From the NCBI GenBank assembly GCA_050012255.1, contig JBEKHN010000016.1, positions 1 through 54,053 on the forward strand: DNA of 54,053 bases, written 5' to 3'. The translations under genes and the position numbers were made by a program. The first letter of the stretch is position 1. Every line of letters begins with the position of its first letter. The stretch is from Candidatus Bathyarchaeia archaeon (GTDB lineage: Archaea > Thermoproteota > Bathyarchaeia > Bathyarchaeales > Bathycorpusculaceae). The notes beneath the pieces were generated by a model, which was not told where the DNA came from, did not search any database, and saw nothing but the letters and a program-made list of their open reading frames with translations. Of this stretch, positions 1 through 17,747 are shown piece by piece.

Positions 1-144
1 TTAATTCGCCTTTTGCGATTTAGAGGCATTTTTGGGCTTCGCGTCTGTTTTCGTGCTTCTTTCAGTGCCCACGCTTCTCGAACTGTGCCGGCGGCCCGAA
101 GGTGTTGGCCTGTGCGCTGTGAACAGCTTATCGTCAACTCCCAT
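1..144 (-). CDS. putative small basic protein (47 aa, MGVDDKLFTAHRP...)
   Basis: ATG at 144 preceded by GAGGAGGG; open to TAA at 1-3; below ORF-track cutoff; no recognisable family. Confidence 0.4.
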   Translation of the reverse strand: MGVDDKLFTAHRPTPSGRRHSSRSVGTERSTKTDAKPKNASKSQKAN

Positions 145-238
145 GATTTTCCCTCCTCACCACGGCTGAGACTGGCCTATCAGAGAAGCCCGAATCGGAC
201 GCAAAAAGGCAAAAGAAGAATAAACACCATTTTTGACC

Positions 239-262
239 AATTTAGGAACACGCATGCGCGCT
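239..262 (+). repeat. lone copy of the AATTTAGGAACACGCATGCGCGCT motif
   Basis: 23/24 match to reverse complement of 31657-31680; 21/23 match to 31829-31851. Confidence 0.7.
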
Positions 263-432
263 CCTTCGCGCGAAAATAGGTTCAAATGCAAAGACGAGAA
301 AAAAAGGATAGCGTCACTATCAAGTTAGGACAGGAAAAGTGAACAGTCAGCCACTTAAGCCGGACAACTGAGCCTAACAAACAAAGAAACCGCCCAGTTG
401 TGAGTTCTTAGATGATGATTTTCATGGAAAAG

Positions 433-1731
433 TCAGCAGTCATAGTGATGATTAAAGTTGTGCGATAATATTAACGCGTCATAAATGTCTATTACACCGT
501 CATAGTTCAGATCGGCACGTTGATCCCAATTGGAATCTCCATGCTTCGAGCCGAAGGCTGCTGAAAGGATGTTGGAGTCGTAGATATCCACAATGCCATC
601 TGCGTTACAGTCGCCGCGACCACGGTAATCTACGGTGTTTTGGAATATTGCCATCAGTGCTGGTTGTTTTGGATAGCCACTCGTGTTCCATGCTTGCCAG
701 AATTCTTGGAAGGTGTTGCACGGAGTTGTGTGCATTATGTTCCATATGTGTGTGAACCCGTCTGAGAATGTGTCGTAGCCATCATTGTGCGAGTCGTAGA
801 TGTCCAATAAGGCGCCTGCAACGCGACCCTCGACCTCATCACCGTTATCCCAGCCTGAAGTATACCAGGTTGGGGCTTCAAGATCAATTGATTTACCAGT
901 CGTGGCGTTTATTCCAAGCACTAGATTCCCCTTGTTAAATACTGCTAACGGGAAGAAGTTGGCCCAGCCTTCAGCCCAAGCCGTTGTCGAATTGCTACGC
1001 AGATTGATGTAGTGTTGCAGCATTGATGGAGGAATGAATCCATAAAGACTATTCATGACGTGATGACCATACTCATGAAGGATTGTGTCAGGCCACCAAC
1101 ACGCCCAGTCAGGCAGGTCTATTGTCCCATTTGTCCAGTACTGTGGCCAATTTCCGTAAGGCCAACGAGCTGTCACCATCGGCGTCTCATAGCCCGTTTG
1201 CGTTTTTACGTAGTTCCACCCAGCCACAATACCACAGTGATAGGAAAAGACGATCCAAGCTCCGATCTGATCCTGAGGCACACCACTTAGCGAAAAGTCC
1301 ACACGGGAACCATCTGTAACGTTGTACCATGTTCCCCAGCCAAAATCGTATATAGTGCCAGTACCGTCAGTTACTGCTACCGCCGAATTCCAAGTATAAA
1401 TAAGTACCACTATGTCTAATCCGCCTCCATCTGCTGGATCTGAATTCAATATTAGACCAGAAGTGAAGTTCCCATTTGCATCTGTAAAGTATTCGTTGTT
1501 CCCATTTACATCAGTGAGTCTTCGAAGCCCGGCAGGATCTGCATCGAATATTCGGACTCTCCCAAACACAGTTGGTCTCAATGCTCCATTGTTATCCCAA
1601 TATTCGTAATGACCATGGACAGTGATATATCCGGTTTGAATGTTCAAATTCGGCAATGTTCTTGGCCCAACGTTGAAAAATGTGGAACAAACAAATAGTA
1701 CGATAACCAGGGGAATTGATTTTTTCTTCAC
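433..1731 (-). CDS. secreted zincin-like metallopeptidase with C-terminal dockerin
   Basis: Likely GTG start at 1731 (KKK + hydrophobic signal); HEYGHH zinc motif followed by AWAEGWA; duplicated dockerin loops GDCNADGIVDIYD / ADLNYDGVIDIYD. Confidence 0.8.
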   Translation of the reverse strand: MKKKSIPLVIVLFVCSTFFNVGPRTLPNLNIQTGYITVHGHYEYWDNNGALRPTVFGRVRIFDADPAGLRRLTDVNGNNEYFTDANGNFTSGLILNSDPADGGGLDIVVLIYTWNSAVAVTDGTGTIYDFGWGTWYNVTDGSRVDFSLSGVPQDQIGAWIVFSYHCGIVAGWNYVKTQTGYETPMVTARWPYGNWPQYWTNGTIDLPDWACWWPDTILHEYGHHVMNSLYGFIPPSMLQHYINLRSNSTTAWAEGWANFFPLAVFNKGNLVLGINATTGKSIDLEAPTWYTSGWDNGDEVEGRVAGALLDIYDSHNDGYDTFSDGFTHIWNIMHTTPCNTFQEFWQAWNTSGYPKQPALMAIFQNTVDYRGRGDCNADGIVDIYDSNILSAAFGSKHGDSNWDQRADLNYDGVIDIYDALILSHNFNHHYDC

Positions 1732-1802
1732 TTTGTCCCCTTTTGCACTTTTTGTTCTTCTACGAATGTAAATTTTACTGTAATCGGGAAAAATGAGAAA
1801 AA

Positions 1803-2423
1803 TCAAAGTGAACCAGTTGTGACATTGATGGGCAGCCCCGGCAGAAATGGCATCTGACCTGAAGGAGCAATGGGATTATGTGATACTTGAACATCATTCT
1901 CAAGAACTGATATCCATATTCTATCTATTGTAATATAGGTGAAGCCTTGCAGTGCCGGTGTAGACCAGGATACAGTTGCTGCTATCCGAGCATAACCGAC
2001 TTCAACAGCCTTTATCCTTTGTGTGAAAATCATCGAGACATTGGCTTTTAAGTCACCATTCCACACGACCTTTGTGGTCGTTGTGTTTTCGCCAATAAAG
2101 TCAATTCCTGTTGGCCACTCGCTACTCACCTGCAACAAGTCAAATTCTACGACGACATTGGACGCGTCACATGTTGACGCAACAGCAACTGTTAAGTCAC
2201 CTTCACTACCCACTCCCAGAGGTACTGTGAGATTAGAGATAAACGCCTGCACGTCAAAAGAGCCAGACGGCCATCCAGGAGGCAGCAGAGGGGGAGAACC
2301 AGAGCTAGAAGGTGTTGTTGCTTTTCTTGGCAAGGGCGCTAACACAATAGATGTGATAACCAGGCTTGCAACTATGATACCAGCCAGTCCAGAAATTCCC
2401 AGCTTCTTGCTTTCGCAGGTCAC
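1803..2423 (-). CDS. membrane-anchored protein (N-terminal TM, Pro/Ser linker, beta-rich domain)
   Basis: 206 aa ORF; hydrophobic N-terminus then TTPSSSGSPPLLPPG linker. Confidence 0.7.
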   Translation of the reverse strand: MTCESKKLGISGLAGIIVASLVITSIVLAPLPRKATTPSSSGSPPLLPPGWPSGSFDVQAFISNLTVPLGVGSEGDLTVAVASTCDASNVVVEFDLLQVSSEWPTGIDFIGENTTTTKVVWNGDLKANVSMIFTQRIKAVEVGYARIAATVSWSTPALQGFTYITIDRIWISVLENDVQVSHNPIAPSGQMPFLPGLPINVTTGSL

Positions 2424-2494
2424 TCCTTATCACCGACCGTATAGTTTGCATTCGACTTATATAAAATAACGTTTTTATACATTTGTATAAAGAG

Positions 2495-2941
2495 TTATAC
2501 ACTATCTTTTTGACGCAACAAACGAAGTGTTTCATACCAGAAAATGGCCGAACCGATAACGGCCAGAACAAGCGCAAACACGCTGTAAAAGCTAACCTCT
2601 CCAAACCTCACAACGATGTAGAGCAGAAGGGTAGTAAACATCGTAGCGTAGAAGAGGTACCTTGGGAGCAGAAAAGGGCCGAACCTCATAAACTGCTTAA
2701 GAATACCCACCTTAACCTCTCTAACCAGGCAATATTCGCCATGTTCATTCTTGACCAACCCAAGTTCCTCCAACTTCTCAAGATGATAAGCCGCCAACCT
2801 CGGACTAGAAAAGTGTAAAGCCCTCTGCACTTCTCTAACACCCACAGTATTAGGTTCAGACTTCAACAAGTACCAATACACTTGAAGAGTCTTTCCTTTC
2901 AACTTCCCCTCAATCTCTTTCTCTTCCACCAACTGAACCAT
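2495..2941 (-). CDS. winged-HTH transcriptional regulator with two C-terminal TM helices
   Basis: VGVREVQRALHFSSPRLAAYHLEKLEELGLV wHTH followed by two hydrophobic segments. Confidence 0.8.
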   Translation of the reverse strand: MVQLVEEKEIEGKLKGKTLQVYWYLLKSEPNTVGVREVQRALHFSSPRLAAYHLEKLEELGLVKNEHGEYCLVREVKVGILKQFMRFGPFLLPRYLFYATMFTTLLLYIVVRFGEVSFYSVFALVLAVIGSAIFWYETLRLLRQKDSV

Positions 2942-3186
2942 CCAGAATCGCTAGCTCTCCTCTATTCTTTGGTGTCACTAACTACTGTCACAAAAGCAAA
3001 ATATATCAAACTTCCTCTAGTTTTGATCTGCCGCATAACAAAGCTTGAATACAGACGCTCTACTTGTGCGCATAGTTCGATTGTCTATGCGCGCGATTGT
3101 TTTCGATTGTTTCCGTCCGTTCTACCCTTCATAAACTGAAGTTCAAGCGCATTGGAGGTTTTGTATGCGGCCGTTGTACGTCGTGG

Positions 3187-3432
3187 TTCCCGCGCGTGAG
3201 CGGAGTCTGAGCAACAGACATCGTCGACTACTAGCTCCCGACCGACCCGCTGGACGACGTGAACTTGAAGAGGCTGTACGAACTGCAGAAGGATCCACGT
3301 TACAAAGACCCTTTGTGGTGCAGAGAGATCAAGACTTTTATGAAAATCAAACGGAAGGCGGAGCAAGAGGCGTTCAGCAGATACGGCCTACCATGCATCG
3401 TGGACGAGTACCTGCTGGACAACTCGAAGTGA
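3187..3432 (+). pseudogene. top6A: decayed 3' fragment of DNA topoisomerase VI subunit A
   Basis: Frame starting 3202 reads [69 protein letters not shown], resembling the Top6A C-terminus; in-frame stops at 3208 and 3232; no 5' part. Confidence 0.8.
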
Positions 3433-3592
3433 CAAAGTGAACCAGCGCCACTTGACACGCCCTTATCTTATACATTCAGGGAAAACGAAGGCCTTCTCGT
3501 CACGGCTTTCATGGCAGGGCACGCCTTTAGCGAAAGCATAAAATAACTGTGTATCTTTCTATCTGGGAGCATGTTGGAAGGAATGGACTGGA

Positions 3593-3793
3593 ATGAGTGA
3601 GGAAGGCGGCTTCGGGATAGGCTTGGCTGAAAAATTCTTCGGCCTGATAATCTTTGTTGTGGGTCTTCTTGTTTTGTACTACACCGTCACAAGCGCGTCG
3701 ACTTTGGGCGCGTTCACGGGTTTCTTCAGTTTTCTGTGCGTTGTCCTCGTGGTGGTAGGTCTAGTTTTGATGATAGCCAAGACGACTGAGTAG
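3593..3793 (+). CDS. small two-TM membrane protein
   Basis: 66 aa, two hydrophobic helices, ATG start. Confidence 0.7.
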   Translation: MSEEGGFGIGLAEKFFGLIIFVVGLLVLYYTVTSASTLGAFTGFFSFLCVVLVVVGLVLMIAKTTE

Positions 3794-3794
3794 G

Positions 3795-4121
3795 CTATTC
3801 TCTTCTTTCAACAACTATCTTGCAGTTCGTGGCTAGAGCAGCTATGACGCCTAAGGCTGCAAGCCAAGGAGCAATGACGGCGCCGATGACTCCGACAGTG
3901 GCAGGTATTTCGAGAAGAACTTTCCCGTTCACGTCCTTGACGATTATCCTGGTCACGTTTCCTTCGTGAAGCAGCTCCTTAACCCTTTGAATGAGGGTGT
4001 CAGAAGAAACCGTGAACTCTTCTCGCGCGACTTTGGTGACCTTCGCCCCGCAAACGGTGCAGAACTTATCCTCATCGGTCAACTTCGCTCCACACTTCGA
4101 GCAGTACGGCAAACTCTGCAC
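3795..4121 (-). CDS. zinc-ribbon + DUF4342-like protein
   Basis: CSKCG...CTVCG then VKELLHEGNVTRIIVK...LEIPATVG. Confidence 0.8.
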   Translation of the reverse strand: MQSLPYCSKCGAKLTDEDKFCTVCGAKVTKVAREEFTVSSDTLIQRVKELLHEGNVTRIIVKDVNGKVLLEIPATVGVIGAVIAPWLAALGVIAALATNCKIVVERRE

Positions 4122-4217
4122 TCCTCAGATGAGCATTTATTAGGGTAATGGTTTATTAATTTTCAGCGAACAGTCAGAAAGCGGCTTGTTCGGCGCTGGT
4201 GCAGGAAGAAGATTAAA

Positions 4218-5999
4218 ATGCCGATTCGTCAACCAATCGTGTGCGTTCTCGGACACGTTGACAGCGGCAAGACTTCTCTTCTGGATAAGATCCGTAAGAC
4301 AAGCGTTCAGGCCCGCGAAGTCGGCGGAATCACTCAGCACATCGGCGCCAGCTTCTTCCCAGCTGAGACTCTAGCTCAGCTGGTGGGTTCCCAGCTCTCC
4401 GTAGTCAGGGGCGAAATAGAAATCCCGGGCCTACTCATCGTGGACACACCGGGACACGAGGTTTTCACGAACCTTCGCAGAAGAGGCGGCAGCGTCGCAG
4501 ATATAGCCATTCTGGTAATCAACGTTCTCCGAGGCCTTGAAGCTCAAACCTACGAATGCATCGAGATTCTTAAGGCCCGGAAAACTCCGTTCATAGTCGC
4601 AGCGAATATGATTGACCGCATACCAGGCTGGAGGTCCCAGCCAGACACTCCCTTCTCTAAAACGTATCCGCTGCAAGACCCCTACGTCAGGGAGGACCTG
4701 GACAACAGAATATACGACATCATAGGCACATTTTCTCGGTTGGGGTTCAAAACAGACCGCTTCGACCACGTAAGAGAATTCACTACTACTGTAGCAGTAG
4801 TGCCGACTAGCGCCAAGACAGGCGAGGGCATAACCGAACTCATCATGGTGCTCATCGGACTTGCACAGCAGTACCTCAAGAAGCGTCTGCAGACCACTAA
4901 AGGCCCAGCAAAGGGCACGGTTCTAGAAGTGAAGGAGGAAACTGGACTCGGACTAACCCTCAACACCATAATCTACGACGGTGTGCTGCAGAAAGACGAC
5001 CTGATCGTCGTAGGCGGCAAAGAAAAACCAATAGTAACACGGACACGTGCGATTCTTGTCCCCAAACCGCTGGACGAGATCAGAGACCCCAGGGACAAGT
5101 TCTCCTCGGTCGACTCTGTTTCTGCCGCGGCTGGAGTCAAGATAGTCGCGCCTGACCTTGAAGGAGTCTTAGCAGGCGCAACTCTGTATGGTGTTCCTAA
5201 AGGTGCCGAACCAGAAAAGTATGCCAGATTGATCACTGAGGAAATTGGAAAAATCAGAATCTCAACGGACATCGACGGAGTTGTCGTGAAGGCAGACACG
5301 CTTGGCTCACTTGAGGCGATTGCAGATATACTCAAGCAGAACAAGGTGCCCATCCGACTGGCAGATGTTGGAGACATATCGAAACGAGACGTTGTCGAAG
5401 CAGCCGTCGTGAAGGAACACGAACCCCTGTACGGCGCAATCCTAGCCTTCAACGTCAGAACCTTGCCCGACGCGGAAGAAGAAGCCAAAAACAGAGGCAT
5501 AACGATCTTCGCAGACAGAATAATCTACCATGTGATAGAGAACTATCTTGCATGGTTCAAAGGAAAACGCGAAGCTGGACTCGAGGAAGACTTCGACGCC
5601 CTCGTCAAACCCGCCAAACTTAGAGTTATGGAAGGCTACGTGTTCCGAAGAGCCAAACCCGCCATATTCGGCGTCGAAATCCTCGCAGGAAACATCAAGT
5701 CCAAATACGGGCTCGTAAGAGCTGAAAACGGCGAAGAAATCGGCGAAATCCAGCAGATACAAGAAAAAGGAGAAGCCCTTTCAACCGCCGGACAAGGAAT
5801 GCAGGTAGCAGTCTCAGTCGACAAACCCATTTTTGGAAGACATATATTCGAAAAAGACGTGCTGTACGTCAAAGTCCCTGAAAAGCACGCCAAAGCGCTG
5901 CAGGCAAAGTTCACAGAAAAGCTGACTCCAGAAGAGCTTGAAGCACTTGGCGAGTACGTCAACCTCATGAGAAAGAAAGTGCCCTTCTGGGGAGCATGA
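4218..5999 (+). CDS. infB: translation initiation factor IF-2 (aIF5B)
   Basis: GHVDSGKT, GITQHIGA, DTPGHE motifs; 593 aa. Confidence 0.97.
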   Translation: MPIRQPIVCVLGHVDSGKTSLLDKIRKTSVQAREVGGITQHIGASFFPAETLAQLVGSQLSVVRGEIEIPGLLIVDTPGHEVFTNLRRRGGSVADIAILVINVLRGLEAQTYECIEILKARKTPFIVAANMIDRIPGWRSQPDTPFSKTYPLQDPYVREDLDNRIYDIIGTFSRLGFKTDRFDHVREFTTTVAVVPTSAKTGEGITELIMVLIGLAQQYLKKRLQTTKGPAKGTVLEVKEETGLGLTLNTIIYDGVLQKDDLIVVGGKEKPIVTRTRAILVPKPLDEIRDPRDKFSSVDSVSAAAGVKIVAPDLEGVLAGATLYGVPKGAEPEKYARLITEEIGKIRISTDIDGVVVKADTLGSLEAIADILKQNKVPIRLADVGDISKRDVVEAAVVKEHEPLYGAILAFNVRTLPDAEEEAKNRGITIFADRIIYHVIENYLAWFKGKREAGLEEDFDALVKPAKLRVMEGYVFRRAKPAIFGVEILAGNIKSKYGLVRAENGEEIGEIQQIQEKGEALSTAGQGMQVAVSVDKPIFGRHIFEKDVLYVKVPEKHAKALQAKFTEKLTPEELEALGEYVNLMRKKVPFWGA

Positions 6000-6083
6000 A
6001 GCACGTGTTCCTGACCCACAAAAACTAGTAAATGCACAGGATGCAAACCGTAGACTAACCGCAGACTAAACGTTGGACGAATG

Positions 6084-6377
6084 TTAGCCGCCGCTGACAG
6101 GTGGAACTATCGCAAGAATATCTCCGTCCGAAAGCTCAGTTTCCGTGCCTTTAGGGGAAGACACGCTTCTGCCGTTCACGAGAAACTGCAGGAAACCCTT
6201 AACCTCACGGGTCCTATGGTCACAAACGTACTCGTCAAAGGCTTTACCATACTTCTCACTCAACCGCTTGAGAACACGGTTCACTGTCACCTCTTCATCC
6301 TTTGGAAATTGTAAAGTTTCCTCTTTCTTGCCTGTGATCTCCCTGAGAATAGTGAAGAACCGCACTGAGACACGCAA
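6084..6377 (-). CDS. ubiquitin-like SAMP / MoaD-ThiS family protein
   Basis: C-terminal PPVSGG, beta-grasp size. Confidence 0.9.
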   Translation of the reverse strand: MRVSVRFFTILREITGKKEETLQFPKDEEVTVNRVLKRLSEKYGKAFDEYVCDHRTREVKGFLQFLVNGRSVSSPKGTETELSDGDILAIVPPVSGG

Positions 6378-6516
6378 GACTTGACCGCCTAGAAAAATGA
6401 AACAACAAGCCGAAATTTAAACCGTTGCACCGCAGAAAACACAAAACAACGTGTGCATGCACTGCGCAGTTTCGCCCGTGAACGGAGCAAATCTATTTAC
6501 AGACGCAAACATGCAG

Positions 6517-6533
6517 AGGGAAGATTTATATTA
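6517..6533 (+). promoter_or_regulatory. putative BRE/TATA upstream of thermosome gene
   Basis: purine run followed by TTTATATT ~60 bp before ATG. Confidence 0.45.
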
Positions 6534-6591
6534 TTGAGCATTTTTGGTTATTTCCGATTAGTAGAATTCTAACCTTGAACGGAGGGTATGA

Positions 6592-8247
6592 ATGGCATAC
6601 TTAACGACAACAGCGTCGGGACAACCAGTCCTGATCCTGAAGGAAGGAACGTCACGGAACAGAGGTAAGGAAGCTCAGAGAAACAATATAATGGCCGCAA
6701 GAATAATCGGTGAAGTCTTGAAGACGACCTTGGGACCACGCGGCATGGACAAGATGCTCGTCGACAGCCTTGGAGACATCACCATAACAAACGACGGAGC
6801 CACGATACTGAACGAGATAGAAGTTGAGCACCCAGCAGCGAAGATGATGGTGGAAATCGCGAAAACTCAAGACGATATGGTGGGCGACGGAACGACAACC
6901 GCCGTCGTGTTGGCAGGGGAACTCCTCAAAAAGGCCGAAGAGCTCTTAGACCAGAACATCCACCCCACGATAATTGTCAGCGGCTATCGCAAGGCAGCCG
7001 AAAAGGCGATTGAAACGATAAACAACACGGCAATACTAGTCGACATAGAAGACCGTGCGACACTCAAAAAAGTCGCCGTGACATCGATGGCAAGCAAGGC
7101 TGTAGGCGCGGCGAAAGACCACTTTGCAGACATGGCAATCGACGCGGTGCTGCAGATAGTTGAAAAACGCGGAGAGAGAAACGTCGCCGACACAGACAAT
7201 GTTCAAGTCACGAAGAAAACGGGAAAGAGCCTCTTCGAATCACAACTCGTCAAGGGCCTAGTGATAGACAAGGAAGTAGTCCACTCCGGCATGCCTAAAC
7301 AAGTTGAAAGAGCAAAGATAGCGCTGCTGGACGCTGCACTCGAAATTGAGAAAACAGAGATCAGCGCTGAAATACGGATACGCGACCCAAACCAGATGAA
7401 AGCCTTCCTAGACCAAGAAAACAAGATGCTGCAAGACATGGTTGAAAAGATCAAAGCCTCAGGCGCAAACGTGGTTTTCTGCCAGAAAGGCATCGACGAC
7501 ATGGCGCAACACTTCCTCTCAAAAGAAGGAATACTCGCAGCAAGAAGAGTGAAACAGTCAGACATGGAAAAGCTGGCAAGAGCCACTGGCGGAAGAATAA
7601 TCACAGACTTGACCGACTTGAAAGCCCACGATCTGGGGACAGCGGGCCTCGTGGAAGAACGCAAGCTCGGCGAAGACAAGATGATCTTCGTGGAGAAATG
7701 CAAAGACCCCCGCTCAGTCGCCATCATTATACGCGCTGGACTAGAAAGAATGGTCGACGAAGCCGAAAGAGCAATGACCGACGCGCTATCCGTGGTTTCA
7801 GACGTCATAGAAAACAACAAGATAGTCGCAGGCGGCGGCGCAGTGGAAGTCGAAATGGCCAAAGAACTCCGAAAGTACGCCACAAACGTGGGCGGAAGAG
7901 AACAGCTCGCCATAGAAGCCTTCGCTGACTCCATCGAAGTGATACCAAAGACCCTCGCTGAAAACGCGGGGCTCGAACCCATAGACGTAATCGTGGAACT
8001 TAGAGCAGCACACGAGAAAACAGACGGCCAACACAAAGGCGTAAACGTTTTCAATGGAAAAATCGAAAACATGCGCGACAAAGGCGTGGTCGAACCCCTA
8101 GTAGTGAAAGAGCAGGCAGTGAAGTCAGCCACAGAATCCGCTTCAATGATACTCCGCATAGACGACGTCATAGCGGCCACCAAGCCGAAGGAAGGACCAG
8201 GAGCAGGAAGACCACCCGGCGGCGAAATGCCCGAAGGCGAAGACTAA
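6592..8247 (+). CDS. thermosome subunit (group II chaperonin)
   Basis: [24 protein letters not shown] motifs. Confidence 0.97.
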
Positions 8248-8494
8248 AAACATCCCCTAGTTTTTCTATACGTTCCAACCATTTTTCTCAACCACATACT
8301 GACTTTACACTGTGAGCTTCTTCGCGCGGCAACGGCAAGCCAGAGTCTGTGCAGATCCTTCTTAGTTTCAACACCTTGTCAATCAAGAAATCCTTCGCCA
8401 CCTCCACAGGCAGAATAAACGTCACAGAACGATCAGCAACACTATAACCTAGAAGAACGAAAATATACTTCAAACGCAAGTAGTCTTGTCCAGT

Positions 8495-8607
8495 GCTCCG
8501 GTAGTATAGTCCGGTCAAACCTTGAAGGGATCATGTATAGCGGCCTCTCGACTCTGACAACTGGGAGAAAGCCGCGGACCCGGGTCCAAATCCCGGCCGG
8601 AGCACCA
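8495..8607 (+). tRNA. tRNA-Glu(CTC) with two introns (21/22: 8519-8534; 37/38: 8551-8569), CCA encoded
   Basis: Acceptor GCTCCGG/CCGGAGC, anticodon stem GCGGC/GCCGC, T stem CCGGG/CCCGG; both insertions form bulge-helix-bulge-like motifs (GGTC/GATC and CTCT/GGAG central helices). Confidence 0.92.
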
Positions 8608-8708
8608 CTCAAATCAGGCTTGCTTCTGGCTTATTTTTGCTAAGAAAGCTTGATCTGAGCACCTCTGAAAGCATGGTTAAGATTGGAGCGCGAGTTTACT
8701 GGTGAAAA
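8585..8708 (+). repeat. left copy of ~124-bp degenerate direct repeat (tRNA-Glu 3' end + downstream flank)
   Basis: Nearly gap-free colinear similarity to 14549-14671. Confidence 0.8.
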
Positions 8709-8885
8709 CATAACCCGCTTTTCTTGTTGACCGACGAGATCAATAAACTCAGAGAAGAAGGTGAGACGATAGATGGGACGTTCTGAGTTTAAGATGGAGA
8801 GCGCAAGCGCACTGGCGCTAAGTCAAGTGTCCTGATGCATATTAAAAGTGAATAAGAAAAAGGGGGAACGTGTTTGGAAATTGTT

Positions 8886-11276
8886 CTAGGTGTATTGGAG
8901 GTTTTGTATTCGGCTGTTGTAGGTGGTGGTTCCCCAGTAGAAGGTGGATGCTGTCCAGTTGTAGAGGCGGATGTAGGAGGCGAACGTGTAGTAGTACACC
9001 GTCCACGTTGCCGCTTGGAGGGTGGTGGCTTGAAGTTGTTCAGTTGTGAAGGTTGCGCACAGGTTCCAGCCTGACCCGCCGACTTGCACGTAGACGCGTA
9101 TGACCAAGGAGTCTGTCTGCTGCAGGGCTGTTTGGGCCACTGAGACCGTGTTGCTTTGTAGGCCCGAGCCACTGCTCCTCCCCACCAGGGCCTTCGGCGT
9201 TCCCGTTTGACCGTCAAGGCTTATCTCCTGTTCAACGCCGTTTGAGTGTCGGACCCAAGCTCTTATGCCCCAAGAGGCCCCGTGTCCGCTTCCGCCTTGC
9301 GTGACGTAGGCGCTGCTGGTTGACTCCGGAATGTTCAGGACGTAGGCGCCTAGGCCGTTGACGGTTTGGGTGTCGCTGCGCATGTACCGCCCGTAGTAGA
9401 CCGTTACGGAGCCGCTTGACACGCTACAGGCTATTGGCTCGGCCGTGCTGTTTCCCAGCTTGGCGTCTGTCAGTGTCAGAGAGGTGGTTCCCGGCTGCAA
9501 CGCTTGGAATGTCAGCGTTACTATTGTCATAGATCCGTTGAATGACGACGCCGGGTAAGTGGCGGTCTGACCTTGCCAGTAGCGAGAATATGTGGCGTTG
9601 TAGTTGGCTTCCAAGCCCGGACCAAAGGTCTGCGTATTGTTCTGCCACTCCGTCGGAGTTTGGACAACGACGTTCGTGCAGTTAAGCACATTACTGTTCC
9701 AGTAGAGCTTGAACTCCCATCCGAATAAGTCGGTAGCACTGGTGACTTCTACGTTCACCGAGAATACCTCGCCCTTGAACATGTTGATCTGGCTTGGGTC
9801 CACGAGGACAACAGAGGCTCCGGCGGTGGCGGCTAACATTCCGCCCTTAGACGACATACGGCCTGATAGTAGATCGTTTATGTTCCAATTGAAATGTGAC
9901 CCAAGTACGATTGCATCGTAGATATCGATTATCTGCAATCCCGTTACACTATCTGGACTGGTGATGAAATTGGCGTCGGGGTTGTATCCTGTCTGGTTTT
10001 CCAGTTTACCAAAAGAACCCGATAAGAGGCAAGCATCATATATGTCGACTATGCCGTCACCGTTAACGTCGCCTAACAGTACTTTGGCTTGAACCGTGTC
10101 GTTCGTGAGCTGGTTGTCCGAGGGGTTCATGTCGAAGACCGTGTCAATGAGCAGGTTTGCATAGCCGGTGATGCTGTAATTACCAGGGTTCAGGGTGTCC
10201 GTTTCGTTCCAAACAAAGGTGTGGTTATAACTCCCACCTAATCCTAGAATAGCGTCCGCCGTGCCTATGTTTCTGGTATCGCTTGCGTTGTTGACGTTTG
10301 TTCGGTTCAGGCCAACCTCAACGTTCAGCGCACCATCGTTATTGTCGGTTCGGCTTACTGTTACATTGTAGCTCATCGAAATGCTCTGACCGTCGTATCT
10401 CATCCCGTGATGATAGACTTGAAAAACAGAATAATGAGGCGGAACTGGATCGACACTGGTAACGCTTATACTGACTGGATATTGTGATGGGACGACGCCG
10501 GGATTCCATATGTATACAGAACCACCGTCTATTAAGACGTCTACTCCGATGGGCACGTATCCTGAGTCAAGTCTTTCCCACGTTGCAGCGTGGCTACTGC
10601 CGTCCAGACCCACCCAGTATTGCTCGTGGAAGTAGAAGTTGAAACTAGGCGTACCTCCAATCCCATCTGCATGGTTGACTTCCTCATAGTCTGTATAGTC
10701 AACATAAGCCGTATTGTTAATGAACCGAGTTAAGTTCAAGTAGTTTCCGCCAGTGGGCGCGTTTTGGGACCAGATCACTGTTCCGCCTTCGGAGAGAGTG
10801 AAAACTGCGGTGAGGTTTTGAACGGTGATGCTGACTGCATATGTAGACCCCATGGACAAGGTCATCTCGTTATGGTATAGTGTATCGTTCAGGGGATAAT
10901 ATGTAGCACCTCCCAAGGGACCGGTGGTCCACGAGTAAGTCAACCCCCATAGACCGTTGTAATAAGTATCAAATCCAATTTGATCGTAGCTACCGTTACT
11001 ATCATAAGCTGAAAGCAGTATACCGTAGTTTTCATCTGAATTTGGCGCGGAGCTGGGAATGGTAATGCTTGTGTTGATGCTCCTAGCTTGCTGGGTACCA
11101 AATGACGAAGGGCAATTGCTCCCGCATTCCCAATTGGTTGAAGTATCCCCTACTCTTGGTGGTGACCAATGTGAGAAACTCGGATCTGCACGAACATGAA
11201 CCATTAGTTGAGGCATAATAAGCGAGAATACAACGAGAAAGATAAAAACAACGATTTCTGGCCGCGTTTTCGTCAT
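8886..11276 (-). CDS. secreted multidomain protein: N-terminal beta domain, CARDB-like, dockerin, cohesin, C-terminal beta domain
   Basis: Signal peptide; GDVNGDGIVDIYD dockerin (~9890-10073); cohesin-like FSVNVEVTSATDLFGWEFKLYWNSNVL...NGSMTIVTLTFQA...GTTSLTL (~9395-9820). Confidence 0.85.
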   Translation of the reverse strand: MTKTRPEIVVFIFLVVFSLIMPQLMVHVRADPSFSHWSPPRVGDTSTNWECGSNCPSSFGTQQARSINTSITIPSSAPNSDENYGILLSAYDSNGSYDQIGFDTYYNGLWGLTYSWTTGPLGGATYYPLNDTLYHNEMTLSMGSTYAVSITVQNLTAVFTLSEGGTVIWSQNAPTGGNYLNLTRFINNTAYVDYTDYEEVNHADGIGGTPSFNFYFHEQYWVGLDGSSHAATWERLDSGYVPIGVDVLIDGGSVYIWNPGVVPSQYPVSISVTSVDPVPPHYSVFQVYHHGMRYDGQSISMSYNVTVSRTDNNDGALNVEVGLNRTNVNNASDTRNIGTADAILGLGGSYNHTFVWNETDTLNPGNYSITGYANLLIDTVFDMNPSDNQLTNDTVQAKVLLGDVNGDGIVDIYDACLLSGSFGKLENQTGYNPDANFITSPDSVTGLQIIDIYDAIVLGSHFNWNINDLLSGRMSSKGGMLAATAGASVVLVDPSQINMFKGEVFSVNVEVTSATDLFGWEFKLYWNSNVLNCTNVVVQTPTEWQNNTQTFGPGLEANYNATYSRYWQGQTATYPASSFNGSMTIVTLTFQALQPGTTSLTLTDAKLGNSTAEPIACSVSSGSVTVYYGRYMRSDTQTVNGLGAYVLNIPESTSSAYVTQGGSGHGASWGIRAWVRHSNGVEQEISLDGQTGTPKALVGRSSGSGLQSNTVSVAQTALQQTDSLVIRVYVQVGGSGWNLCATFTTEQLQATTLQAATWTVYYYTFASYIRLYNWTASTFYWGTTTYNSRIQNLQYT

Positions 11277-11597
11277 AATTTCATCCTCTTTTAACGGCCC
11301 ATCTTTTCTTGCTTTCTAATACGAAAGCAAGTCAAATATATTTCTTTCGACTCACGCAGGCGAGTGGAACCCAATCCATTGCGAGGCTCTTTGCTCTTTA
11401 GAAGCCGCTCTGAAAAGACCTATCTGAGACCTTTGGGCTAGACTAAGGTACCTATGCGCGAATCTTAGCGCTGTGAGTTCTCGTCGAAAGCTCTGAATTA
11501 GATGTTTCAGCACATCATTCTCTGGATCTTTGGGAAATGTGCCATCTCGGGATTGGATTTTCAAGAACCAAGAGTCAAGCTTCTCTTTTTCGCATAC

Positions 11598-12362
11598 TCA
11601 CCAAGCAGTCCCGTGGCCATTGAAAGCGAGAATTAGCTCTGCGAAGCCTCCGGCTACCACCTTAGCAGTTGCGTTCTGCAAGGGGGCAGAGCCGTACGCG
11701 CCAACGACAGAGTAGACTCCAGGCGTTACTGTGAAGACTGAGCGACCATTATCATTAGTGCGGGTTGTACCGTTAAGAGATTCTGGGCCTGTTATCGTTA
11801 CCGAAGCCCGTACAAAGCTTCCCCCGCTCTCACCCCAGTACCATGCAGAGAGGATTATGTGGCCCAGAGGTGGCGGTGAAGAAGAACCGAAGTTGAGGAT
11901 CACTTCACCGTAGGTACCCGAATATGTTGCGTTTATGATTGCGGTCCTTGGAGTAGAAGAGGCGTACGTGCCAACCACATGGTACACTCCTGGCCACAGT
12001 CGAAACGCTAAGGGATTCTGCAGGTCTGTGCTTGTAGTGCCGTTTAGTGTCGTAGCATTGATCGATATAACATCAGCAAATCGAGGATTGGGAGGATCTG
12101 GTCCGGTTATCGTTACCGAAGCCTGTACAAAGCCGTCATCTTGGTATGCGAAAACGTATATGTAGGCTGCAGCAGATATCTCAAGATGACCGAGCCCCGG
12201 AGGATTAGGAGATTGTATAACAGGAAACGTAGTTTCTATCTGTACGGAGTCCTTAGGTTTGAACTCGTTATCTAAAGCAAAAGCTAGGCTGACAACTAGT
12301 AGCACGGTGAGCGCTGCAATCAGCAGCAGCTTCCTAAATGTCAGGTTCAACCTGCTCACCAT
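11598..12362 (-). CDS. membrane-anchored/secreted protein with two internal beta-sandwich repeats
   Basis: N-terminal hydrophobic helix; repeat LGH..SA...V.ASVTITGP...LNGTT...PGVY.VVG.Y.S twice. Confidence 0.75.
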   Translation of the reverse strand: MVSRLNLTFRKLLLIAALTVLLVVSLAFALDNEFKPKDSVQIETTFPVIQSPNPPGLGHLEISAAAYIYVFAYQDDGFVQASVTITGPDPPNPRFADVISINATTLNGTTSTDLQNPLAFRLWPGVYHVVGTYASSTPRTAIINATYSGTYGEVILNFGSSSPPPLGHIILSAWYWGESGGSFVRASVTITGPESLNGTTRTNDNGRSVFTVTPGVYSVVGAYGSAPLQNATAKVVAGGFAELILAFNGHGTAW

Positions 12363-12419
12363 AGTGGTATGTATTAAAAGAAGTAATTAAGTCTGACTAT
12401 TGAACGGGTTTGTTCTAGT

Positions 12420-12861
12420 TCTTGAAGGCTAGCGCACAGCCTTGGAAAAAGAACAGTGCCAACCAGACTTGTTGTCGAGCCCATAGCAGACAACATTATG
12501 CCTACCTCCCGCTACCAGATGGAAGCAGAAAAGCTGAAGTAACGAGAACAGCTGCGTGCAGTACTACGTGAAAGAAGTTCGTTGGCAACAGCCACTTTCT
12601 GGTCTGTAGAAAGGGCCAAGAACCTCTAAACCTAAAGCAATAACGTGGTAAACGCCGTTCTCATCCTTCCTTGCAAGGCGCAAGCCCTCGAGTTTCCTTC
12701 AGGTGATGCAGGGCCAAGGAGGGACTGGACAGGCCGCAGCCGCGGTAGACATCTCTCACGGAGGCATCACCAGCCTTAAGCAGGAAAACGTAAACCCTCA
12801 GAGTGAGATACTCGCCACCAACACTCTCTTCTAAAGCCTCCTCAGGAGCTACGTCAACCAA
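12420..12861 (-). pseudogene. frameshifted paralog of the wHTH-TM regulator at 2495-2941
   Basis: LTLRVYVFLLK...SVRDVYRGCGLSSPSLALHHL | KLEGLRLARKDENGVYHV | RKWLLPTNFFHVVL read across successive frameshifts; 3' end approximate. Confidence 0.75.
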
Positions 12862-13004
12862 GACAGAACACGACCAACCACAATTTAGTACATGACATCT
12901 AAAAAGCCTTTCACATCCCCCAACTTCAGCATAGGTTTCTTCCATTCACATGTTTTTCAGACCAGCAAACGCGCGCGTTGAAGGTTGTCTAGACTGGGAT
13001 TTGA

Positions 13005-13027
13005 TTGTGGCCCGAGAGAGATTCGAA
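13005..13027 (-). other. tRNA 3'-end-like fragment
   Basis: Minus strand TTCGAAT-CTCTC-TCGGGCC-A-CAA has T-loop/T-stem/acceptor/discriminator spacing; no 5' half. Confidence 0.4.
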
Positions 13028-13227
13028 TTTGTCAAATAGCCTGCTAGGCAGATTTGCCGGTAAGATCGTGCTCCGATCTGAGCCTAAGCGCCACACTATA
13101 GGTCTAGGTTTCTAAATGACATATTCCTGATTTTCATGTTGCCAAGTTCAGTGTCCGCGTGAAGAGATCATCGGGCGCATCGGTTTTTAAGTCTGCTTTG
13201 CTTCTTAGTGGAGAATAAAAACTGTAC

Positions 13228-14487
13228 GTGCGTGAAGCCGCCGTGGAAAGGAAGGAAACCTCTGAGGAGAAGAAGGCCGAGTCGGACCTGAAGCCTCTGT
13301 ACGCAAGGTCGGTTGTTAATTCTGTAAGCGGCGGAATGGTGAACCCTTTTATGGGTGCTTACGCCGTGGACCTCGGCGCTTCGTCCTCGGACATGGGTTG
13401 GTTTCAATCCTCCACTAACATCTCGAACAATCTGATGCAGGTTTTCTGGGGAATAATGAGCGATAGAAGCAAACGCAGAGTGCCCTTTATCGTCTTCGGC
13501 GGACTGATCCTGTCATTCCTGTGGGTTCCCATGATATTCGTGACGAACGCAGGTCAACTCATCGTGCTTTTGGCAATCCAAGCGCTCTTAGGTTCGATGG
13601 CAACCCCAGCGTGGACGGCTCTGATAGGAGACCTGGTTCCGCATCTTAGACTGGGAAAGGAAAACGCGTCCATCAACTATTGGGCTTCAATAGGGGGGAC
13701 AGTTGCCACTCTGGCCTCAGGCATCTTCATGATATATCTCCACGGAACAATCCAACAAGTCCTTCTCGTTCCACTTGTTGTTGCCACAATCTTCGGAGTA
13801 GCATCATCATTAGTCATGCTGAAAATAAAGGAGAAAGGCAACGGTGCCAGATTGGACTTGAAACGAAACGTGACCACGGACGTGTTCGACGTTTTGAAGT
13901 CTGCCAGGAAGACACCCAGCTTCGTAAGGTACTGTTACGCAGAAGGAGTGTTCAACTTTTCCATGTCCATCGCTTGGCCACTCTTCTCGATTACTCAGAT
14001 CAGAATCTTGAACGCTTCCTGGCTTCAAATAGCCCTGCTGAGCGTGGTTCAAACAGTCATAACCATAATCTTCCAAGGCTGGGCTGGACGACTTGCAGAC
14101 ACTGTTGGAAGAAAGCCATTGATGGTGTTCTTCAGGTTCAGCCTCGTAACCGTGCCTCTAGCGTACGCACTGTTTCCAAGTGTCAACTCACTCATAATCG
14201 TAGGCGCCTTCTGGGGCTTCTCCCAAGCTCTGGGATCAGCATCGATAACAGCCTATCTGATTGATGTCTCCCCGCAAGAATCTCGCGGAAGCTTCACAGC
14301 AGTATTCAACCTCATCATGGGCATAGTGACTTTTTTCGGCTCGCTCATCGGGGGATACTTATCGGACTACATGACGGGCTTGTTCGGCTTGGTTGCAGGG
14401 CTGCAGATCGTTTATTTCATCTCAACTGTGGGCAGAGGGATAGGTGCCGCGCTATACTTCAAACTCGAAGAAACCTTGCGACGATGA
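13228..14487 (+). CDS. MFS transporter
   Basis: GIMSDRSKRR and GRLADTVGRKP motif A; ~12 TM. Confidence 0.92.
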   Translation: MREAAVERKETSEEKKAESDLKPLYARSVVNSVSGGMVNPFMGAYAVDLGASSSDMGWFQSSTNISNNLMQVFWGIMSDRSKRRVPFIVFGGLILSFLWVPMIFVTNAGQLIVLLAIQALLGSMATPAWTALIGDLVPHLRLGKENASINYWASIGGTVATLASGIFMIYLHGTIQQVLLVPLVVATIFGVASSLVMLKIKEKGNGARLDLKRNVTTDVFDVLKSARKTPSFVRYCYAEGVFNFSMSIAWPLFSITQIRILNASWLQIALLSVVQTVITIIFQGWAGRLADTVGRKPLMVFFRFSLVTVPLAYALFPSVNSLIIVGAFWGFSQALGSASITAYLIDVSPQESRGSFTAVFNLIMGIVTFFGSLIGGYLSDYMTGLFGLVAGLQIVYFISTVGRGIGAALYFKLEETLRR

Positions 14488-17458: not shown

Positions 17459-17747
17459 CAGCACCGATTTTCCTATTCGCATACATAAGGAATATCGAAC
17501 ACGTTTCTTAGGAAACACGTTGCATAAGACAGTTGTGAATACAGAATCAATAATTGAAAGAAAGACGATTGGCGACTCATCTGATACTTTGCTGCAACTC
17601 TTCTGAATGAAAAGCAAGCGATGAATCGAGAAGACTAGGCCGCGCTAGGTTGCGGATGAATCGTATGTCTTAATCTTCCCTTTCACACTCGTGAGAAAAC
17701 TTTAATTCTCTGACGGTTTTTTGTGATAAAGAAACAGAGGAAGAATA

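Follow-up and report, generated by a model that had tools for sequence, protein, structure and literature searches.

The window analysed here is a stretch of 54,053 nucleotides that makes up contig C16 of the genome of an uncultured archaeon from peat, Candidatus Bathyarchaeia (2.35 Mb, 38 contigs), and our subject is a pair of three-gene groups within it, each composed of a small transmembrane (TM) regulator, an N-terminally anchored protein and a dockerin-bearing secreted protein. Throughout, C-numbers denote contigs of this source genome, L-numbers denote loci of its relatives, and G003 is the congeneric genome that holds L093. In agreement with an earlier note on this DNA, both trios are present in identical order on the minus strand (2941 to 433 and 12861 to 8886), and their regulators are paralogous with the second one decayed: a tblastn search of the window with regulator 1 returns a remnant at 12547-12861 (119 columns, 31% identity, E 3e-7) that is broken by a stop. 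The middle and third genes likewise proved as unlike between the trios as the note had said, with no detectable shared sequence except the dockerin. The arrangement is not a chance one, because it is conserved, trio 2 gene for gene in L093 and trio 1 in metagenome contigs. The features are as follows.

433 to 1731, minus strand: third gene of trio 1 (dock457), with a signal peptide, a beta-sandwich, a predicted thermolysin-fold domain and a C-terminal dockerin at 451-615

1803 to 2423, minus strand: middle gene of trio 1 (mid206), 206 aa, with an N-terminal anchor, a Pro/Ser linker and a beta-sandwich, described from an AlphaFold2 (AF2) model and 12 homologues

2457 to 2474, minus strand: putative transcription factor B recognition element (BRE) and TATA box of the middle gene of trio 1 (AAACGTTA TTTTATATAA), a block conserved in the subclade with a probable promoter role

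2475 to 2501, no strand assigned: predicted operator, a half-site TGTATAA at 2495-2501 and then the inverted repeat TTATACA-AA-TGTATAA at 2475-2490

2495 to 2941, minus strand: regulator 1 (REG1), 148 aa, described from its open reading frame (ORF), sub-threshold Pfam matches to a winged helix-turn-helix (wHTH) and an alignment of five intact paralogues

8886 to 11276, minus strand: third gene of trio 2 (dock796), 796 aa, with a signal peptide, a dockerin at about 9890-10076, a cohesin-like stretch at about 9357-9809 and a C-terminal region

11598 to 12362, minus strand: middle gene of trio 2 (mid254), 254 aa, N-anchored with two internal repeats, 48% identical to its orthologue L093:6302-7117

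12394 to 12861, minus strand: regulator 2 pseudogene, placed by tblastn, by alignment to the intact orthologue L093:5807-6277 and by an identical X2 contig

Regulator 1 has the features of a membrane-tethered winged-helix protein, which is what the earlier note had proposed, namely winged-helix matches that lie below the Pfam cut-offs (TrmB at 21.0 bits for a cut-off of 25.6, LexA_DNA_bind at 20.5 for 23.7) and two C-terminal hydrophobic helices, which a hydropathy scan also finds in most members of its family (TM helices were called throughout by a rule of our own, with 19-residue windows and a Kyte-Doolittle mean of at least 1.6). In the layout that we derive, a cytoplasmic winged helix extends to about residue 75, some 20 linker residues follow, and the first TM helix begins at about residue 95. 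The juxtamembrane PRY motif is conserved, the two TM helices form a hairpin whose outside loop has about 7 residues, and the chain ends in a short basic tail, 9 residues beyond the second helix, so that no outside domain is present; nor does REG1 have a Pfam match to HAMP. The recognition helix would span about S45-L57 and carries R48, L49, A51 and Y52. Four further intact paralogues are found in the source genome, on C2, C5, C27 and C14, and the five intact proteins align over their full length with S45, S46, P47, A50, H53 and P93 invariant. Across the regulator-family alignment (A5) P93 and Y98 are invariant, with R94, Y95, A99, T103, T104, S120, W135, Y136 and E137 nearly so.

A search of a protein collection recovered 1167 relatives of REG1 at E <= 0.001 among 1229 candidates, and relatives carry the precomputed Pfam DNA-binding families PF01726, PF01978 and PF12840. 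Relatives from a protein search bear the labels of Bathyarchaeota or Bathyarchaeia metagenome-assembled genomes. The family is found in 38 of 41 related genomes, with 1-9 matches each. Of 201 genomes taken evenly across the phylum, 118 have it at E <= 1e-10, and outside the window's order it is mostly single-copy. The regulator-partner cassette family is old in the phylum and expanded in the window's lineage. With its predicted DNA-binding domain the regulator family fits the definition of a transmembrane transcription regulator (TTR) given in the main text of Demey et al. 2023 (PMC10269533), a DNA-binding domain together with at least one TM region.

The spacer that separates regulator 1 from mid206 points to the DNA that such a regulator would recognize. 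Its 71 bases read, on the minus strand, TGTATAA, CTCT, TTATACA, AA, TGTATAA, AAACGTTA and TTTTATATAA, with the half-site at 2495-2501 overlapping the REG1 stop codon and the BRE/TATA block directly downstream of the predicted operator. We gathered the closest relatives of REG1 (50-79% identity) by scanning metagenome contigs with regulator 1, and in these subclade loci the spacer keeps a conserved block, yGTATAA-N4-TTATACA-N2/3-TGTATAA-AAACyGTTATyTTATATA. Exact matches to TTRTACANNTGTAYAA number 3 in the 2.35-Mb genome; TTRTACANNTGTAYAA and TTGTACN4GTACAA together occur at 4 places, 3 of them beside regulator paralogues (C16, C5 and C27), and 30 first-order Markov simulations of the genome gave 0 matches for either palindrome pattern. 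The paralogues on C5 and C27 have TTGTACA-N2-TGTACAA and TTGTAC-N4-GTACAA in divergent spacers, and a further seven loci (L086, L098, L102, L104, L105, L110 and L118) have the same palindrome, with varying central bases, next to an orthologue. Where the partner is a beta-propeller protein, the type discussed below, GAACA-N3-TGTTC is found in 30 of 60 spacers; these spacers are near 74 bp long and a TATA-like block comes after the site.

The main reason to think that the regulator itself binds this operator is that the half-site co-varies with the recognition helix. Regulators with R48-L49-x-Y52 go with TTATACA (10 of 19, and no other type) and those with T48-L49-x-Y52 go with TTGTACA (11 of 25, and again no other type), while S48..H52 goes with xxGAACA in 16 matches, plus one TTGTACA and one other. 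This co-variation also bears on the reading that the protein is not a transcription factor at all, in which the winged helix would serve protein-protein contacts and the regulator-partner pair would be a structural membrane complex. Pfam scores below cut-off and the lack of a solved close relative in our searches would suit such a complex; a rare palindrome conserved beside the genes, a half-site that changes together with residues 48 and 52, and the DNA-binding families precomputed on relatives would not, and we consider this reading very improbable. As to the direction of control, archaeal activators usually sit directly upstream of the BRE/TATA, and activation is favoured because the predicted operator lies upstream of the BRE.

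We next consider the genes that accompany the regulator, for which we used 80 loci from species-representative genomes, 40 from close relatives, in which every paralogue was included, and those of the source genome itself, with the longest non-overlapping ORFs of a crude gene caller of our own as gene calls and 1301 ORFs at least 4 genes away from a regulator as background. The counts tie the regulator to its neighbours in function: an N-anchored protein with a single TM helix occupies position +1 in 74 of 118 loci, compared with 4% of the 1301 distant ORFs, and is found at -1 in 13/118 and at +2 in 15/111. The commonest partner is a PF09826 beta-propeller protein (a cluster of 72 ORFs with a median of 657 aa; the source genome's own copy matches PF09826 at E 8.8e-148), and further partners are an MG2/Big_1 protein and a Peptidase_A4 protein (both of the C5 type), DUF4382 proteins and several without assignment. 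In a FastTree phylogeny of 199 regulators, which has several long branches, the beta-propeller clade comprises 115 rows with support of 97, the C5-type and the C27-type each form one branch, the window subclade is one group of about 25 rows, and regulator 2 is a separate long branch. Partner labels in 9 groups change 32 times on this tree, against a mean of 89.5 when shuffled; the partner is specific to the regulator clade.

Other families of the phylum, represented by 20 loci, mostly have a protein of about 83-118 aa with two TM helices directly after the regulator, with a beta-propeller sometimes nearby. This small protein (L185:6891-7169 and loci L206-L221), which has no Pfam match, may be the ancestral partner. 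We also observed it between regulator and beta-propeller in some Bathyarchaeia. As a separate observation, the C5-type cassette has an N-anchored Peptidase_A4 protein (a glutamic peptidase, E 1.3e-28) on one side of the regulator and the MG2/Big_1 protein on the other; in this type (C5:109969-110784 and L118:7064-7891) the regulator is again paired with a secreted peptidase.

The partner in trio 1, mid206, begins with an anchor of the form KKLxISGxAG...A, with a TM helix at residues 10-27, continues through a disordered Pro/Ser-rich linker (28-53) and ends in one Ig/macroglobulin-like beta-sandwich (58-181). Its AF2 model, from a 17-row alignment, has a mean predicted local distance difference test (pLDDT) of 74.7, with the sandwich above 90, and a Foldseek search with this model places TRAP-beta and complement macroglobulin (MG) domains first (E from 7e-5); mid206 has no Pfam family match. 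In the alignment of the protein with its 12 homologues (A3), the anchor residues G12, G15 and A19 are invariant. The same anchor is recognizable on a quite different protein: comparing the N-termini of the mid206 and beta-propeller families with hhalign gave a probability of 81.5% (E 1.1e-5, 22 columns), and three controls with other anchors or signal peptides gave 0.4-2.8%. The anchor motif is found in 66 of 216 distinct N-TM proteins at +1 or +2 versus 2 of 382 further away, a count that is partly circular, as two of the families counted had served to define the motif. By ectodomain, it is carried by 46/72 beta-propellers, 10/18 mid206-like proteins, 6/19 DUF4382 proteins, a family from outside its definition, and 4/108 others. 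This is the pattern expected if the anchor, and not the ectodomain, talks to the regulator, since partners with unrelated ectodomains keep one anchor. A co-fold of the regulator and middle-protein alignments (A5 with A3) gave a score of 0.00, with a mark of 0.32.

These data can also be read more simply, with the regulator as a plain local repressor or activator that is parked in the membrane, perhaps coupling transcription to insertion but sensing nothing, and with the partner as its target only. The evidence for the operator requires no contact with the partner, the co-fold gave no support for one, and the divergent arrangements of the C5 and C27 types are typical of regulator-target pairs. 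A passive tether, however, would not be expected to have its TM hairpin and juxtamembrane segment among the best-conserved parts of the protein, nor to be accompanied by a single anchor motif on partners with unrelated ectodomains, and we therefore regard a regulator that senses nothing as unlikely.

Taking these lines of evidence together, we propose that both trios of the window are cassettes of a large archaeal regulator-partner family, which act as local surface-gene circuits resembling those of ArnR or ToxR/ToxS and of which one has a dead regulator; we would put the probability of this reading at roughly 0.6. The core of such a cassette would be a small transmembrane regulator, with a cytoplasmic winged helix at its N-terminus, a two-helix hairpin at its C-terminus and almost nothing outside, together with a neighbouring gene whose extracytoplasmic product is anchored at its N-terminus. 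As a dimer, the regulator most likely recognizes a palindromic site immediately next to the partner gene's BRE/TATA; in trio 1 this site would be TGTATAA-N4-TTATACA-N2-TGTATAA at 2475-2501. From there the regulator would set transcription of the partner and probably also of the gene behind it. That downstream target would be a dockerin-tagged secreted zinc protease of thermolysin fold in the trio 1 subclade and a dockerin-plus-cohesin protein in trio 2. Because the regulator is without a sensing domain of its own, the signal is most likely passed within the membrane by the partner's N-terminal anchor, which the regulator hairpin presumably contacts; the partner could be a co-sensor in the manner of ToxS or TcpH, or could give feedback on its own insertion.

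Several observations weigh against this proposal. The winged-helix matches of REG1 do not reach the curated Pfam cut-offs, and the best match of the regulator profile among PDB sequences was only ArsR at E 0.14. The fourth palindrome in the genome, TTGTACA-N2-TGTACAA at C4:111618, lies about 65 bases before an ORF for a soluble wHTH protein of 108 aa (111697-112023), which is followed by a 539-aa N-anchored, vWA-like surface protein (C4:111618-113792). Since this palindrome precedes a different, soluble wHTH gene, another factor could be the binder, and the site could serve either the regulator family, as one more target, or a different factor. A strict palindrome rule finds no site in most loci of the beta-propeller type, no clear site was seen before REG1 and no convincing one before the dockerin genes; as the operator is present only in the spacer between regulator and partner, it is gene order that argues for control of the dockerin gene. 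The anchor of the trio 2 middle protein is without the shared motif, and the motif count has the circularity described above. Locus counts overstate independence because loci share descent, and the third gene is absent from L127, L129, L136 and L090, with L222, from a genome, as a fifth miss.

The subclade that includes trio 1 nevertheless has a defined order of regulator, mid206 homologue and dock457 homologue with a dockerin, seen in metagenome contigs at L126, L132, L133, L134, L135, L137-139, L141, L155/157, L161 and L167/169. Collapsing identical regulators and taking loci with two visible downstream genes, a gene of the dock457 family lies two or three positions downstream of the regulator in 12 of 16 distinct subclade loci. 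At L135 (7001-12416) the whole trio occurs twice in tandem with a spacer palindrome in each copy, the second one diverged to TTGAACA..TGTCAAA. Trio 2 is intact in L093 of G003, with identities of 48% for the middle gene and 60% for the third gene. The cassette has gained a dockerin-bearing secreted protein in two subclades.

Whether the regulator family as a whole serves to control cellulosome-like dockerin proteins, in the way of clostridial RsgI/SigI, is a separate matter. The earlier note had suggested a dedicated circuit for dockerin cargo, with enrichment of dockerin or secreted-protein neighbours around the regulator's homologues as its test. Such a circuit would account for the dockerin gene that ends both trios of the window, for the third gene that is kept in most subclade loci, for the conservation of trio 2 in L093, and for Pfam cohesin matches on some middle-like proteins (L137:458-1498 and L149:533-2356). 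Around the family at large, anchored neighbours are enriched, as the +1 counts above show, but dockerins are not: over the first 120 loci a hidden Markov model (HMM) built from 27 Pfam-positive dockerins of the source genome finds them in 0/118 at +1 and 2/111 at +2, against a background of 8/1301. PF00404 has no match at E <= 0.001 in 15 of the 38 relatives that bear the regulator, the source genome has about 30 dockerin ORFs but six regulator loci, in the 118 of 201 genomes the regulator mostly occurs once, next to either a small membrane protein or a beta-propeller, and the operator was not seen before dockerin genes. As a statement about the whole family, dedication to dockerins is already refuted, and as an explanation of the cassettes we find it quite unlikely. 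The link to dockerins is real but confined to subclades, given the 12 of 16 loci in the window subclade and the low counts across the family; what stands of the suggested circuit is a third gene that follows regulator and partner in this subclade, within a family that is not dedicated to dockerins.

The third protein of trio 1 itself is encoded by a longest ORF of 457 aa at 433-1806, with a TTG start, and has a GTG at 1731 that is probably the true start, because homologues align only from residue 33-35. It matches Dockerin_1 (PF00404) at 31 bits, over the cut-off of 22.9. The model of the protein (AF2, pLDDT 81, predicted template modelling score 0.83) retrieves thermolysin, aureolysin and vibriolysin in Foldseek (5fxn, 1bqb, 3nqx and others; E 4e-7 to 1e-5, template modelling scores 0.45-0.60), and the sequence has HEYGH at 1063-1077 and a candidate for the third ligand, a Glu, at 970-972; in the family H218, E219, H222 and E253 are invariant in 22 sequences. 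It thus resembles the thermolysin-type (M4) gluzincins in predicted fold and in an invariant HExxH with a downstream Glu, and differs from them in its N-terminal beta-sandwich, its C-terminal dockerin and the lack of a Peptidase_M4 match in Pfam, either in dock457 or in 20 relatives, so that the likeness is one of fold only; Pfam has no model for this domain, and a propeptide of the FTP/PepSY type was not detected in dock457. We read dock457 as a putative secreted protease of the gluzincin type with a dockerin. Searched without the dockerin, the protein has 1155 representatives at E <= 0.001, and many relatives of the domain lie inside large secreted proteins with PKD, CBM, fn3 or type IX secretion system tail domains.

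In trio 2, dock796 has an N-terminal region of about 370 aa without a recognised fold. Its dockerin falls below the Pfam cut-off (15.9 bits, E 0.016) and is matched, as is its cohesin-like stretch, by our own dockerin and cohesin HMMs, both of them simple tools. The orthologue L093:7414-9725, which is 60% identical, has weak Pfam matches to both domains (E 0.0011 for Dockerin_1, E 0.003 for Cohesin). A close paralogue of the cohesin-like stretch, C1:27090-27467, gives a PF00963 match at E 1.4e-8. A likeness of motif had suggested a G1/A4 glutamic peptidase for the N-terminal region; this candidate was rejected, as BLASTP against the Peptidase_A4-type neighbour on C5 gave E 0.05, there was no Pfam match, and Atlas scores were at most 0.80. 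The middle protein mid254 has no Pfam or NCBIfam match.

A membrane-anchored cohesin that holds the dockerin cargo was likewise considered for mid206 and set aside. Both third proteins bear a dockerin, as in cohesin-dockerin systems, but mid206 is not a cohesin scaffoldin, with no Pfam cohesin match and none among the top 50 in Foldseek. Separately, some longer relatives of the middle protein have a cohesin domain in addition, as matched by Pfam (E 7.9e-8 for L137:458-1498 and E 9.4e-7 for L149:533-2356), and because of these the anchored partner may also dock the dockerin protein in some lineages.

The second regulator differs from its intact 156-aa orthologue in L093 by one 1-base insertion, near 12697, and three 1-base deletions, near 12606/12605, 12513/12512 and 12437/12436. 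An assembly error in the source genome does not explain these lesions, since a contig of the independent run X2, from another study, is identical over 12239-12709 (0 differences, 0 gaps), and regulator 2 is a true pseudogene. Its wHTH part can still be read, and the part that encodes the TM hairpin is far more diverged than either the wHTH part or the stretch before the middle gene. The conservation of this last stretch despite the decay of the regulator suggests that the downstream genes of trio 2 are still used; we can only speculate that another regulator paralogue controls them.

Among membrane-bound regulators already described, the closest in architecture are archaeal. ArnR and ArnR1 of Sulfolobus acidocaldarius are membrane-bound one-component activators of the archaellum with an HTH and two C-terminal TM helices, and ArnR binds two inverted repeats upstream of the BRE/TATA, at -43 to -84 (both from the portion of PMC6396743 covered here). 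REG1 shares with them an archaeal origin, the N-terminal HTH, the two C-terminal helices, the presence of paralogues and, as its predicted target, inverted repeats upstream of the BRE/TATA of a surface gene. In contrast, ArnR as portrayed in that portion has its HTH separated from the membrane by HAMP-like and sensor domains, where REG1 has only about 20 linker residues, its boxes are TCGAC-N5-GTCGA, unlike TTATACA/TGTATAA, and an adjacent anchored partner is not described there (PMC6396743); the two are likened by architecture and not by sequence.

In Vibrio cholerae, ToxR/ToxS and TcpP/TcpH combine a transmembrane regulator with a co-encoded single-pass partner by which it is modulated (the excerpts of PMC7496328 and PMC11323476 considered here). 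The shared feature is a membrane DNA-binding protein that adjoins a single-pass partner, here in 74/118 loci at +1. ToxR and TcpP are bacterial OmpR-type proteins with one TM helix and a periplasmic domain. The regulators studied here differ in having a hairpin and, with a loop of about 7 residues, no outside sensing domain; their partners have large and varied ectodomains, and the contact between the two would be the point of likeness that we propose. As far as tested, the regulator is not a member of the ArnR or ToxR groups.

The census of TTRs by Demey et al., in its main text, reports them as common in archaea, counts about 4 per archaeal genome, with two TM regions in 17% of TTRs, does not describe this family, its partner genes or its operator, and names Bathyarchaeota 0 times, although its supplements might list members (PMC10269533). 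Literature searches, which covered open-access papers only, returned no description of the regulator family, its pairing with PF09826 or the palindrome.

The earlier note had further drawn a parallel to the anti-sigma control of cellulosomes. RsgI/SigI provides such control for clostridial cellulosome genes, and the likeness is that a membrane protein links the outside to the expression of dockerin-bearing secreted enzymes. To our knowledge, archaea lack sigma factors and their promoters use TATA-binding protein (TBP) and transcription factor B (TFB), and Pfam and NCBIfam scans of the trio proteins found no sigma or anti-sigma domains. The regulator is also without a carbohydrate-sensing ectodomain, and the trio 1 cargo is protease-like and not a glycoside hydrolase. 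Because sigma and anti-sigma parts are absent, the parallel holds as an analogy of purpose only.

A broader interpretation, which we offer tentatively and hold to be doubtful, is that these cassettes represent a modular form of outside-in signalling that is old and widespread in Thermoproteota, in which a membrane factor without a sensor reads whichever ectodomain is carried on an exchangeable coupling anchor and duplicated copies are re-tuned to private palindromes. The coupling anchor would be KK-x-G-x-x-G/A-x-x-x-A, the ectodomains would be the beta-propeller, the MG-like sandwich and DUF4382, and each duplicated regulator would re-tune one or two residues of its recognition helix. In sediments and peat, Bathyarchaeia count among the uncultured archaea of highest abundance. 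They are thought to live partly on detrital protein, and published papers discuss extracellular peptidases in this connection. If the modular interpretation is true, the expansion of the family in Bathyarchaeia of peat and sediment would amount to a set of insulated channels through which surface proteins and dockerin-tagged proteases are turned on as needed. The regulator family studied here also adds to the few archaeal transcription factors that are bound to the membrane, ArnR among them, and suggests a general, partner-coupled mechanism. It offers a predicted operator, a predicted specificity code that relates residue 48 to base 3 of the half-site, and defined targets that include a dockerin-tagged protease. 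These predictions are open to test on synthetic DNA and by heterologous expression, for which the uncultured organism need not be grown.

Elsewhere in the window region are ORFs resembling aIF5B and the thermosome, and just past trio 2 a 967-aa ORF (14714-17617, minus strand) has, by eye from its translation, response-regulator-like, PAS/GAF-like and histidine-kinase-like features. Between the trios, at 8496-8606 on the plus strand, we noted by eye a tRNA-like gene whose acceptor and T-arm end in CCA and in which about 51 bases are inserted at an unusual position; ARAGORN and Rfam, run on positions 1-14000 of the window, reported nothing and both missed this gene. In contigs of runs X1 and X2 the 51 bases at 8519-8569 are swapped for 16 other letters, and the summed depth at 8496-8606 is very high across runs, as expected of a conserved RNA gene.

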